A stretch of 42,000 nucleotides of DNA from the IMG/VR virus record IMGVR_UViG_2909262264_000004; one strand, given 5' to 3'. A model generated the notes under the pieces. It had not been told where the DNA came from. It saw only the letters and a list, made by a program, of their open reading frames with translations, and made no database searches. The stretch's first letter is position 1. Every line of letters starts with the position of its first letter. A program made the translations under genes and the position numbers. Below, one piece after another: positions 4,457 to 41,004 of the stretch. The DNA is from a virus (taxonomy: Duplodnaviria; Heunggongvirae; Uroviricota; Caudoviricetes).

Positions 4457-4579
4457 GAAACCAGAACATGCACACACAAAAAAACCGCTTGCCATGCCGC
4501 AATCAGTCAGGTTACATTTCCGCTGCACTTCATAAAACGGGTGCCGGGTTTCGCAGCCTGCTGACTAGCAAAGCGCACA

Positions 4580-4599
4580 ACCGCGCCAGCGGTTTTTTT
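4580..4599 (+). terminator. Candidate intrinsic terminator after the early operon
   Basis: accgc-gcca-gcggt hairpin followed by a run of seven T. Confidence 0.4.
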
Positions 4600-4778
4600 G
4601 TGCGTACTGTATTGCCACGTCTTTTTCGCACACGAATTATGGCGGGGCGTACGGGGCCGACTTCGGTCGGGCCGGGTTCTTTGCTAGCCGGTACTGCGAA
4701 CCTCGTACGTCTCGCCACCCACAGTTTCGCAGCTCTGGATGGTGAATTTTCAAAACTTACTAGCAAAGAGGCCACACC

Positions 4779-36016: not shown

Positions 36017-37126
36017 ATGACCGATACCACCATGCAATTGCTCAGTCAGAGCACAGACCCCGTGAAAATGCCGGATTTTGATATTCTCGCGGAGGGGGAA
36101 ACACTGTCCGGCGTGGCAGAGCGCCTGATGAGCCTGTCACTGACCGACAACCGGGGATTTGAAGCGGACCAGCTCACCATCACGCTGGATGATGCGGATG
36201 GTCAGTTGCAGCTACCGCCACGGGGCGCGCGCCTGACGGTTCTCATTGGCTGGAAAGGAGAACCGCTGACAGAAAAAGGCACTTACATTGTTGATGAAAT
36301 CGCACACGAAGGACCGCCGGACAGGCTGACTGTTTCAGCCAGAAGCGCAGATTTTCGGGATGAATTTAACGTTAAACGTGAGGTGTCCTGGCATGATGTG
36401 ACCGTTGAGCGCGTGGTATCCGCCATCGCTCATCGGTACGGTCTGAAACCACAAATCAGCGAAATGCTGATGGATATTGAAATCGACCACGCCGACCAGA
36501 CCGAAGAAAGCGACATGTCCTTCCTTACGCGCATGGCGGAAATGCTGGGCGCAATCACTACGGTAAAAAGCGGTAATCTGTTATTCATCATGCCAGGCGG
36601 TGGCGTGAACGCACAAGGCCAGCCGTTGCCCTCGTTCGCCATCACGCGCAGCAGTGGCGATCGCCATCAGTTCCGCATTGCTGACCGCGAAGCGTATACG
36701 GGGGTACGCGCTTACTGGCTTGATCTTAATTACGGGAAAAAGAAAAAAGTCAGCGTGAAACGCCGCAAACCGCCAAAACCCAAAAAGGAGAAAAGCAGCA
36801 GCCGTGAAGGTGATTATATGGAAGGCGCGGAAGGCAATGTGTTTGTGTTACGCAAGACTTATCAGAACGAGCAGGCAGCAAGACGCGCAGCGGCGGCAAA
36901 GTGGCAGCAGCTACAACGCGGAGCCGCATCATTTTCCATCACGCTGGCGCGTGGACGTGCAGAACTCTACCCCGAAATGCATGGCACGGTAACAGGATTT
37001 AAAAGCGAGATTGATAATCAGGACTGGATTATTGCGAAAGCCGAGCACACCATTGATAACAGCGGCTTTACCACGCAGCTTGAGCTTGAAGCAAAAATCC
37101 CGGAATGGATAGCAGAAACAGAGTGA
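36017..37126 (+). CDS. D: Late gene D protein (P2 gpD family)
   Basis: ATG at 36017 after gggagg; 369 aa; immediately upstream of ogr. Confidence 0.85.
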   Translation: MTDTTMQLLSQSTDPVKMPDFDILAEGETLSGVAERLMSLSLTDNRGFEADQLTITLDDADGQLQLPPRGARLTVLIGWKGEPLTEKGTYIVDEIAHEGPPDRLTVSARSADFRDEFNVKREVSWHDVTVERVVSAIAHRYGLKPQISEMLMDIEIDHADQTEESDMSFLTRMAEMLGAITTVKSGNLLFIMPGGGVNAQGQPLPSFAITRSSGDRHQFRIADREAYTGVRAYWLDLNYGKKKKVSVKRRKPPKPKKEKSSSREGDYMEGAEGNVFVLRKTYQNEQAARRAAAAKWQQLQRGAASFSITLARGRAELYPEMHGTVTGFKSEIDNQDWIIAKAEHTIDNSGFTTQLELEAKIPEWIAETE

Positions 37127-37168
37127 GCAACTTAGAATAGCGGCAGCACCACGTTAAGGGAGGTCGCT

Positions 37169-37429
37169 ATGTTCCGTTGTCCGCTTTGTGGCGCATCTGC
37201 CCGTATCCGCACCAGTCGTTCGGAAAATGATTCAAACACCGTACGGAAAAAATATTACCAGTGTAACAACCTGGAATGCGGCATAAGTTTCTCAACACTG
37301 GAAGCTTTCCATAAATTCACATCGAAACACGCCCCCGGCGTTCACTCTTCAGAAGGTATCCCGTGGCATGAGTTGCCAGCTTCACACAGGGGAAACAATC
37401 AGATGAGTTTGCCTTTACCTCAGAATTAA
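37169..37429 (+). CDS. ogr: Late-gene transcription activator, Ogr/Delta zinc finger
   Basis: MFRCPLCGASARIRTSR...KKYYQCNNLECGISF: C-x2-C ... C-x4-C pattern of Ogr. Confidence 0.85.
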   Translation: MFRCPLCGASARIRTSRSENDSNTVRKKYYQCNNLECGISFSTLEAFHKFTSKHAPGVHSSEGIPWHELPASHRGNNQMSLPLPQN

Positions 37430-37619
37430 CAGGCAGAATTGCCGGAGTAACAAAAAAGCGATAGATTACGCGCGGGTGCCTTTCGGCTGATGGTCGGAGG
37501 GAATACCCGAAGGCCAGATGTGGAAAGGCCCCGGAAAACATTTCTGTTTAACCGAGGCCCTAACCGTCTAACCTTAGCAAGTGATAGGTTAGCGCCTCCC
37601 TGAAAAAGGAGCAAGCGCT

Positions 37620-37760
37620 ATGTCGCAAAAATCGCTTACGGCCATCACGTTCTGCGTGACGGCAATCCTCATCATCTGGATGCTGCACGGTTCGCTGTGC
37701 GAAATACGGATGAGCTTCTGGGGAGCGGAGTTTGCGGCGTTCTTACAGTGTAAGCAGTAA
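37620..37760 (+). CDS. hok: Hok/Gef-family type I toxin-like membrane peptide
   Basis: 46 aa, below the ORF-track cutoff. aaggag RBS; one TM helix then SLCEIR..EFAAFLQCK, matching the Hok/Gef signature. Leader has a 7-bp-stem hairpin (ctaacct..aggttag). Confidence 0.65.
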   Translation: MSQKSLTAITFCVTAILIIWMLHGSLCEIRMSFWGAEFAAFLQCKQ

Positions 37761-37822
37761 GGAAACCGCGACGGGGGAGCAATCCCCCGTCAATCGGTTG
37801 CCAGGGTAAGGTCGATAAGGCA

Positions 37823-37833
37823 CCCTATCTCAC
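37823..37833. repeat. 11-bp direct repeat ccctatctcac (left)
   Basis: Identical copy at 39319-39329; both lie just outside the inverted ~115-bp repeats. Confidence 0.5.
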
Positions 37834-37952
37834 CAATGCCGTTCAGTTAGTTAAGGAATTGAGGTTCGATAGCCCGAACCTCGCGCAGAGGCAATATGAC
37901 CGAAAGCCTGATTCCTTAATGCCCAAGATGAGTCTCTATTCATAAAAGCGCT
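37834..37952. repeat. Terminal inverted repeat, left (~115 bp, internally palindromic)
   Basis: Matches the reverse complement of 39209-39318 with a few mismatches and one 4-nt indel. Contains an 8-bp-stem hairpin (gaggttcg..cgaacctc) and ttaaggaat..attccttaa arms. Confidence 0.7.
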
Positions 37953-38169
37953 TAACTACTCGACATTGGCGGTGTATCCCCCGCATTGTCTGAATGCCGC
38001 CTCTTACCTTTCGCGGTCAACTGACGACTTCTAGTTCTAGAACGCCTTGATTTTTTGTACTTGTACATTGAAAAATAACCATAAATTGTTAGCCTGTGCA
38101 GTAGACTCAGTGGCGGTAACTGGTCAGCATGAAGTGTAAAGTGAATAACGAAGCTCTAAAATTATAGGG

Positions 38170-39003
38170 ATGGTCATGAATAATAAGCTAAAGGTAATTG
38201 AGTTAAATAGTCTTGATCTGTTTCGTAAAGAATTACTAACTACTATAAAGCCAGAGAAAGTAGAGAAATTACTTAGATGGTATCTTCAATCATATGGCGG
38301 TGTTAATTTCAAGTTCGGTTATGACAGACCAATTTTTAGAGCGCGAAAGTGCCCAAATGAATGCGGATATAATAACATCAGTGAGATATATCCCCCTCCA
38401 CCAGAAAAATGTAAAATAGGCCGAATGAATGATGATGGACAAGCTATCTTCTATGGCGCTTATAGTATCGGAACAGCTTTAGCCGAAATTAATGCAAAAG
38501 AAGGGGATTATGTTCACATAGCTCACTTTAAGATGCCGGAAAATTCAGAGTCTGGAATGCGATGTTTTGCTATCGGTGAGGTCTTTAATGTGTATCACGG
38601 TGTAAATACAATTTCAATTGAAGTGTTTAATGAAATTCGCGACATCATTAGCAGAATTGGTAAGGACGACATCCGAGCTTTGCTATCATATTTGTATATG
38701 GATGCCCTTTCTGCTGAGTTGCTTAATAGTATCAATGCCCATGAGGTAAATTATATTTACTCAAGAATTTTTTGCCGTCTTCTTCTTGATAAATACCCTG
38801 ATGTTGATGGTCTTATTTATCCTAGCGCTAAAATAAAAGGGGCCTCAAATATCGCTTTGCGCACAGAAACAGTTAAATCGAGAATGCATTTAGTTGCTAA
38901 TCTTGTGTTTAAAGTAAATAAAATTTATCCATATGGAATAGTAGATTTCAGTATAGTAAAACAAGCCAAAGGACATACATCAGATGGGCGCATCGTTTGG
39001 TGA
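38170..39003 (+). CDS. RES-domain protein (NAD+-targeting toxin family)
   Basis: 277 aa (ATG at 38176 has the better RBS). GRMNDDGQAIFYGAYSIGTALAE and GLIYPSAKIKGASNIAL fit the Arg...Glu...Ser RES signature as recalled. No antitoxin-like ORF adjacent. Confidence 0.55.
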   Translation: MVMNNKLKVIELNSLDLFRKELLTTIKPEKVEKLLRWYLQSYGGVNFKFGYDRPIFRARKCPNECGYNNISEIYPPPPEKCKIGRMNDDGQAIFYGAYSIGTALAEINAKEGDYVHIAHFKMPENSESGMRCFAIGEVFNVYHGVNTISIEVFNEIRDIISRIGKDDIRALLSYLYMDALSAELLNSINAHEVNYIYSRIFCRLLLDKYPDVDGLIYPSAKIKGASNIALRTETVKSRMHLVANLVFKVNKIYPYGIVDFSIVKQAKGHTSDGRIVW

Positions 39004-39208
39004 GCCAAACTTTTAGTTAGCTGATTGAAAAACCGATGCGTCAGTTTGCACTGCATGTGGTGTATGGGAAGCGCGGGCTTGTAGTGCAGGTCATTTCAGA
39101 AGAAGCTAACGAGAAAGCTTAGACATACTGTGACTACTAAACAAGCAGAAAGCCCGTGTTTATGGGGGGCAATCCACACAACAGGCGATGTCGATTAGTT
39201 AATACACT

Positions 39209-39318
39209 TGTATGAATAGAGACTCATTTTTGTGCATTAAGGAATCAGGCTTTCAGTCATCTTGCCTCTGCGCGAGGTTCGGGCTATCGAACCTCAATTC
39301 CTTAACTGAACTACATTG
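39209..39318. repeat. Terminal inverted repeat, right
   Basis: Reverse complement of 37841-37952. Confidence 0.7.
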
Positions 39319-39329
39319 CCCTATCTCAC
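39319..39329. repeat. 11-bp direct repeat ccctatctcac (right)
   Basis: Identical to 37823-37833. Confidence 0.5.
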
Positions 39330-39516
39330 AGCTCTAAATGCAAAAATCCCATGAAACTGTGGGTATTTCATTACACACTGACACTGCTCTACCTTTCTAT
39401 ATGTATCACTCTAAACCAGTTAATCAATTGGCACTTATCAACAACAAAAAATCTGATAAAATTAAAATGTTTTGTAACAAATTTCAGCTTGTAGTGTTCC
39501 AAAGGAGACGGATTAC

Positions 39517-40747: not shown

Positions 40748-40770
40748 TATATACCTCCCCAATATCAGAT

Positions 40771-40802
40771 GACAAAACGCCCGTGAAAACGGGCGTTTTG
40801 TC
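40771..40802. terminator. Bidirectional intrinsic terminator
   Basis: Perfect palindrome gacaaaacgcccg-tgaaaa-cgggcgttttgtc. Confidence 0.6.
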
Positions 40803-41004
40803 ATCTGTAACTCGAAAATGTGGTCATTGCGTGGACATACGATGATATAAATCCTTTTATATCAAAAGATTAAACCACTATTATTTTCCTCAACAAGGAT
40901 TTTCACGTTTGTGTTACCTGTATGAGACGAGAGTTAACCGGACAAGTGTGCCATAATCTCGCGGCCAGGCATACTTGCGAAGATTTCAGGTATAAGGATA
41001 CGTA

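Follow-up and report, generated by a model that had tools for sequence, protein, structure and literature searches.

The locus considered here raises two questions: whether a 46-codon reading frame to the right of the ogr gene of a P2-like prophage belongs to a complete type I toxin-antitoxin system, and, if so, how translation of a hok gene is switched on where the leader appears to contain no mok gene. The first can be answered with some assurance. Within the window, by which we mean the whole 42,000-nucleotide stretch of DNA that was analysed, a complete hok/Sok-type locus probably occupies approximately 37439-37832, as an accessory gene right of ogr in a P88-type (Xuanwuvirus) prophage. 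The second admits a more tentative answer, which depends on the predicted folds of the mRNA and on their conservation among relatives.

The toxin gene and its prophage setting

The original prediction described a hok-like type I toxin gene with a strong ribosome binding site about 190 bp downstream of ogr, and all of these elements are present. The ogr gene (37169-37429) matches Pfam Ogr_Delta, and 190 nt beyond its stop codon begins an open reading frame encoding MSQKSLTAITFCVTAILIIWMLHGSLCEIRMSFWGAEFAAFLQCKQ.

37620-37760, plus strand: hok-family toxin gene, 46 aa, in cluster 72 of Escalera-Maurer et al. (Pfam, PHROG, dN/dS)
37606-37611, plus strand: hok Shine-Dalgarno (SD) sequence AAGGAG, 8 nt before the ATG (sequence)

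The product matches Pfam HOK_GEF (PF01848) at 29.9 bits (cut-off 22; E 4e-7), with profile positions 5-42 of 42 aligned, as well as PHROG 251 (80.6 bits), and this Pfam match together with the hok-type leader described below bears out the family assignment. It shares 39% identity with R1 Hok over 31 residues that span the SLCEIR...AAF core. Residues 7-22 form a hydrophobic stretch, and C27 and E28, which correspond to C31/E32 in the family logo, are invariant in 21 relatives. The peptide scores below the cut-offs of the NCBIfam models for the HokA equivalog (34 bits; cut-off 89) and the Hok subfamily (21.6 bits; cut-off 73), and it therefore represents a divergent Hok branch; consistent with these scores, the PGAP name is only 'Hok/Gef family protein'. 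The dN/dS values against 17 relatives range from 0.09 to 0.55, and the reading frame is under purifying selection. This is a genuine Hok/Gef membrane toxin gene, and one that has already been catalogued.

The catalogue is that of Escalera-Maurer et al. (2026 preprint, bioRxiv 10.1101/2025.08.07.668861), Table S2 of which lists a peptide with the same amino acid sequence, 72_1621 (plasmid LRP137), in a high-abundance cluster. Of the 45 Hok homologs tested there by over-expression 42 proved toxic, and 72_1621 is not one of the three named exceptions. The expectation that the expressed 46-aa peptide would kill is in agreement with this table and text, in which the identical peptide belongs to the tested set, and the killing test has in effect been done. 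An expression plasmid is also listed for the Stx-phage variant, 72_1589, which is likewise not among the three non-toxic sequences. The same source reports that hok is enriched in prophages and in repeated-copy 'islets', and states that Mok, Sok and mRNA structure were deliberately left unanalysed; the regulatory anatomy given here therefore appears to be absent from the preprint. A literature search on P2- or ogr-linked hok or hokST yielded nothing on the 46-aa subfamily.

The locus is widespread. A DNA query of 37440-37840 finds it in 1749 of 5426 complete E. coli genomes (about one third), annotated as 'Hok/Gef family protein'. P88-type phages (Xuanwuvirus) carry the hok-region DNA at 95-99.7% identity, and the 46-aa hok is a standard accessory gene of P88-type (P2-like) E. 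coli prophages. Stx phages carry the region at about 81% identity, with the 46-aa gene downstream of lom, and there are further 46-aa relatives in Shigella, Salmonella and Klebsiella. A search for related loci with the 46-aa alignment recovered only six, and some of the contigs bear the labels of unrelated taxa, probably through contamination. The D-ogr-hok synteny is found in Salmonella P2-like prophages, sometimes with two to three tandem hok copies.

We note that complete 46-aa hok units also occur in tandem, two or three to an array and approximately 490-500 bp apart (L026 505-1641, L021 1501-2131, L022 1501-2135, and L005 1-600); tac, fbi and a downstream hairpin sequence are present in every unit. 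The three-unit array of L026 lies directly after ogr, the retrieved flank of the two-copy arrays of L021 and L022 (both Salmonella) contains no ogr, and L005 is an E. coli locus near a tRNA-Leu gene. The unit is also found outside P2-like prophages: beside an L31 paralog gene in E. coli strain 350 (L006), beside a Phd/Fic pair in Klebsiella oxytoca (L014), and on a Salmonella contig with a relaxase gene (L019). The variety of these contexts indicates that a module of about 375 bp, from promoter to fbi, moves between contexts as a unit.

The original prediction placed the gene at the right junction of the prophage, and this is not where it lies. The window matches the packaged phage genome P884B11 exactly as far as about 40904, where the two part, and the P884B11 record continues into int, C and cox; this puts attR near 40905, separated from hok by about 3.1 kb of cargo. 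The conserved backbone ends with hok, and a variable cargo bay that holds the RES unit and the zinc-ribbon and VasI/TagO-like genes extends from there to attR. The segment 39517-40747, between the RES unit and attR, is low in GC (about 35%, against about 52%) and encodes a 110-aa zinc-ribbon protein and a 297-aa protein with a Pfam VasI match, the latter annotated by RefSeq in strain C7 as type VI secretion-associated TagO. It is followed by a perfect 19-bp inverted repeat at 40766-40807. At the other end of the window, the early region contains two neighbouring Rfam matches on the plus strand with scores above the gathering threshold, isrK (4525-4599; 62.6 bits) and the C4 antisense RNA (4635-4722; 82.8 bits).

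Predicted architecture of the hok mRNA and its antisense RNA

Homology to the Stx-phage copy runs from 37453 to 37825, and homology to copies in three other contexts also stops just past fbi. The unit was originally taken to end at 37800, but it runs further, since fbi lies at 37813-37825. The elements that we assign to it are as follows.

37439-37467, plus strand: putative hok promoter, with -35 TTGCCG (37439-44), a 17-nt spacer and -10 TAGATT (37462-67)
37474-37832, plus strand: predicted full-length hok mRNA of about 359 nt, its 5' end placed by homology
37474-37488, plus strand: tac, at the 5' end, an alternative partner of fbi or ucb (MFE folds, covariation)
37523-37532, plus strand: ucb, or anti-SD box, bound to the GAGG box when the full-length RNA is folded and to tac when the truncated RNA is
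37552-37559, plus strand: GAGG box, the positional equivalent of the R1 mok SD, nearly invariant in the alignment
37592-37599, plus strand: dcb, or anti-SD, whose partner is the hok SD in the fold of the full-length RNA and the GAGG box in that of the truncated RNA
37770-37791, plus strand: 3' stem-loop of 9 bp with loop GCAA, the predicted protector of the 3' end of the processed mRNA
37813-37825, plus strand: fbi, which pairs with tac (MFE fold, covariation)
37586-37614, minus strand: putative Sok-like promoter, with -35 TTGCTC (37614-37609), a 17-nt spacer and -10 TAACCT (37591-37586)
37517-37579, minus strand: predicted Sok-like antisense RNA of about 60 nt, placed by promoter position and R1/sokW geometry, with approximate ends

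Folding of the full-length RNA (RNAfold, 37474-37832) pairs the two ends of the molecule through tac and fbi, and pairs the GAGG box with 37527-37534 and the hok SD (37608-37611) with 37596-37599. When the RNA is cut at 37793 (37474-37793), tac moves to ucb, and GAGGC (37554-37558) pairs with dcb at 37594-37598. The predicted full-length and truncated folds reproduce the closed and open conformations of R1. Three features of the R1 paradigm are found, namely end pairing of tac with fbi, an alternative fold after 3' trimming, and a 3' stem-loop after the stop codon, whose protective role we take from R1 (PMC9841398). The hairpin seen earlier in the leader has its counterpart in these MFE folds, which contain hairpins there.

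We compared these folds across 19 aligned loci (E. coli, E. albertii, Salmonella and Klebsiella). In the closed structure 90.6% of cells are paired, compared with 37-47% when the partners are slid, and fifteen pairs have changed on both sides, a number reached in one of 500 shuffles. The tac-fbi helix has 15 pairs with 92.6% of cells paired and compensatory changes at five of them; the alternative tac-ucb helix has 12 pairs, four with compensatory changes; and in the 3' stem-loop, with 98.8% of cells paired, compensatory changes are present at five of the nine pairs. The conserved hok leader elements that comparison with other loci had been expected to reveal are therefore there, with tac, ucb, fbi and the 3' stem-loop maintained by compensatory changes. 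The GAGG-dcb helix varies too little for covariation to be of much use there; both sides have changed in a single Salmonella relative (Sal_L026b), in which ucb, the GAGG box and dcb have altered jointly and in a matching manner (columns 56/88/128).

The Rfam model RF01794 ('sok') aligns at full length to 37474-37633 on the plus strand (43.6 bits, E 2.5e-8), a score at the hok leader that is below the gathering score of 59; the relatives score 47.9-57.2 bits and an R1-type locus 87.2 bits. On that R1-type locus (L004 232-403) the stretch aligned with the model is the sense leader, beginning at the mRNA +1 and ending at the hok ATG, which identifies the match here as a hok-type leader with its start at GGGTGCC (37474). 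For the same reason we rejected the idea that a plus-strand 'sok' match contradicts an antisense gene on the other strand. We note that RF01794, in spite of its name 'sok antitoxin', aligns with the sense strand of the hok mRNA leader and not with the antisense RNA, and strand calls made with it should be read accordingly.

The -10 of the putative hok promoter ends 6 nt before the predicted +1 at 37474, and in 18 of 19 relatives a -10 of the form TA[GAC]A[AGT]T is at this fixed distance of 6 nt from GGGTGCC. The putative Sok-like promoter is kept in all 19 relatives as TTGCTC or TTTACT, a 17-nt spacer and TA[AT]CCT, and the R1 Sok promoter (TTGCGC-17-TATCCT) is at the same position in the leader. 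The two match the consensus at eight and six of twelve positions, respectively. A promoter scan calls neither of them and both are weak by consensus, so we infer the antisense RNA from its promoter position and from R1/sokW geometry. The predicted Sok-like RNA folds at -31.6 kcal/mol (z -4.9).

Compared with R1 hok/Sok (parB) and the chromosomal hokA-E loci, the locus likewise has a small membrane toxin with the SLCEIR...AAF core, an mRNA of about 360-400 nt with tac-fbi end pairing, a ucb/SD-box/dcb switch and a predicted protective 3' stem-loop; with R1 it also shares the placement of the putative antisense promoter in the leader (TTGCxC-17-TA(T/A)CCT). The differences are that the toxin has 46 aa whereas those of R1 and hokA-E have 49-55, that it ends in FLQCKQ and not in the (A/M)AYE type of C-terminus, that the locus scores below the cut-offs of the R1/chromosomal family models (Rfam, NCBIfam), and that it has no recognisable mok frame whereas in R1 mok overlaps hok. 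The K-12 chromosomal mok genes are in frame with hok. Apart from the missing mok frame the locus is of ordinary hok/Sok type, and the gene was already known.

A prophage-borne system with some likeness to this one is hokW-sokW of the Stx2 prophage Sp5, where the level of HokW increases upon induction and the peptide contributes to the release of phage (Takada et al. 2021; PMC8621323). The sokW promoter region, as deduced from the probe, has the same layout (TTGCCT-17-TAACC). HokW is a 51-aa HokD-like peptide (MKQQKAM...) of another cluster (35_712), and the possibility that the present locus is hokW-sokW is rejected because HokW is a different peptide. The phrase 'MokW-like host killing', attached to the 46-aa ORF in phage records and to PHROG 251, is only a label.

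Leader reading frames and the activation of hok

The leader contains one reading frame that might be compared with mok.

37490-37603, plus strand: upstream reading frame of 37 codons, with start, frame and stop unconserved among 19 relatives; probably not a gene

A short frame had been reported here, starting at an ATG at 37492 and stopping 18 nt before hok, and likened to mok/hok coupling. The frame does exist, although its ATG is at 37490 and its stop codon (TGA, 37601-37603) is 16 nt before hok; the proposed coupling fares less well. ATG 37490 is missing in the E. coli copy near the tRNA-Leu gene (Ec_L005), in a ykgM-linked E. coli copy, and in all of the Salmonella and Klebsiella loci examined, which have ACG or unrelated sequence in its place. 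Even in phage P88, whose matched DNA is about 95% identical, a 1-nt indel alters both the frame and the stop. When all ATG, GTG and TTG leader ORFs were enumerated in the 19 loci, none was conserved in start, frame or stop, and in no frame is an ATG, GTG or TTG 3' of the GAGG box conserved across relatives. An in-frame TAG upstream of hok blocks any N-terminal extension of Hok. Judged from the sequences, this is a hok locus that appears to lack any mok frame.

This matters because in R1 translation of mok is indispensable, though needed only up to the hok initiation region, and a locus without mok might thus be poorly expressed. One explanation is that the locus is a canonical mok-dependent one, in which 37490-37603 or another leader ORF serves as mok and Sok blocks the mok frame: a ribosome stopping at TGA 37601-37603, just past the anti-SD, would melt the SD hairpin and couple translation of hok to that of the upstream frame. 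The geometry fits, as the stop codon of the frame falls within the loop of the hairpin formed by SD and anti-SD, 16 nt short of the hok ATG, and coupling of this sort would satisfy the R1 requirement for mok translation only as far as the hok initiation region. Many relatives also have some leader ORF, and a few of these overlap hok (e.g. that of E. albertii, 79 codons), and in the models the hok initiation region remains costly to open unaided. However, ATG 37490 is inside the tac region at +17 and is not preceded by an SD, the GAGG box is not followed by a start codon, and in several loci the sole leader ORFs end about 71-72 nt upstream of hok. Together with the loss or alteration of the frame in the relatives described above, and with the TAG that stops any N-terminal extension of Hok, these observations make dependence on a mok frame unlikely.

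An alternative that we regard as possible, without thinking it probable, is that the cluster 72 loci form a mok-less branch of hok/Sok, in which the R1 mok-SD box is kept only as an RNA switch and Sok blocks hok without a leader peptide. If there is no mok frame, activation is probably a direct RNA relay and not translational coupling. In models of the mRNA, opening the hok region from the SD to +6 costs 13.3 kcal/mol on average when the RNA is full-length and 10.1 kcal/mol when it is truncated, the cost being lower after truncation in 19 of 19 loci, and it returns to 13.4 kcal/mol (higher in 18 of 19) when the Sok target is blocked. The opening cost nonetheless stays near 10 kcal/mol in the truncated form, and base-pair probabilities give no consistent rise there in the unpaired probability of the hok SD, for which reason we present the relay as a hypothesis.

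By analogy with R1, the locus would work in the following way. Transcription from a weak promoter would yield a stable full-length mRNA in which tac pairs with fbi, ucb locks the GAGG box and dcb locks the hok SD. Slow 3' trimming to the stem-loop at 37770-37791 would remove fbi, upon which tac would pair with ucb and the GAGG box with dcb; by this the GAGG box would displace the anti-SD from the hok SD, probably as a direct RNA relay. A short unstable antisense RNA (from about 37579 to 37517 on the minus strand) would bind the exposed GAGG hairpin region and lead to decay of the mRNA. Upon loss of the prophage or of the antisense RNA, Hok would be made and the inner membrane damaged.

The RES insertion and the meaning of the locus

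Immediately to the right of the hok unit there is an inserted element, which is a neighbour of the unit and not part of it.

37823-37833: left copy of an 11-bp direct repeat, CCCTATCTCAC, with the right copy at 39319-39329
37834-39318: inserted RES unit of 1485 bp (inverted ends, empty site)

The description of this element as transposon-like is well founded, since it has inverted ends in the form of imperfect terminal inverted repeats of about 115 bp, is flanked by the 11-bp duplication, and has an empty site elsewhere: in E. coli C7 the site is uninterrupted, with a single copy of CCCTATCTCAC. Its only gene encodes a RES-domain protein of 277 aa (38170-39003), and it carries no transposase. 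The unit is present in 65 of the 5426 E. coli genomes, always in one copy and always within the same flanking sequence. In the P884B11 RefSeq record the RES region (L001 7077-7903) is annotated as two hypothetical proteins, gp33 and gp34, whereas here it is one uninterrupted 277-aa ORF; the 99.7% DNA identity to P884B11 refers to the preceding 37100-38170.

The unit adjoins hok, as was originally noted, although it starts 73 nt after the hok stop codon and not about 60. The suggestion that it truncates the 3' region of hok is not upheld, as both the 3' stem-loop and fbi are intact; the unit begins 8 nt after fbi, which leaves the end-pairing element whole. What the insertion does alter is the position of the terminator-like hairpin, which would otherwise follow about 20 nt downstream and now lies about 1.5 kb away, at 39348-39363. 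At the empty site of C7 a terminator-like hairpin follows fbi, and most other relatives have a hairpin and T-run 30-45 nt after it. A search of the window for the terminator that follows fbi in most relatives (CCCGCAGCGTAAAAACTGCGGG) found no copy of it, and we rejected the notion that it is this one which has been displaced; the hairpin at 39348-39363 is a lineage-specific terminator-like one. The plus strand has no terminator-like site between fbi and 38995.

These circumstances bear on a further explanation, that the locus is a silent or decaying relic, its ORF toxic if forced but natively unexpressed or unregulated, especially with a 3' end disturbed by the RES unit. Both promoters are weak by consensus, transcription may continue through into the RES unit, and in E. 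coli K-12 many of the chromosomal hok loci are reportedly inactivated; but the purifying selection on the hok ORF, the compensatory changes that maintain both RNA folds, the intactness of all regulatory boxes in the copy at 37439-37832, the retention of the exact hok and RES arrangement at ≥99% identity in 65 genomes, and an Stx-phage copy that likewise lacks an adjacent terminator make this very improbable.

A maintained hok/Sok-type locus in a prophage may serve in retention of the prophage, in helping lysis as reported for hokW, or in phage exclusion. As a gene find it adds little, being annotated, part of a catalogued Hok cluster and identical to a peptide in the preprint's tested set; the residual interest is in the apparent absence of mok across the whole 46-aa branch and in a possible mok-independent relay. 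If the mok-less interpretation is true, the GAGG box of the trimmed RNA pairs with dcb and so lowers the barrier to direct initiation at hok, Sok represses by occupying the box or by RNase III cleavage, and an insertion 8 nt after fbi would alter the making of the activating 3' end. Conservation of the full tac/fbi/ucb/dcb switch without mok would, if confirmed, mean that translational coupling is not universal for hok regulation.
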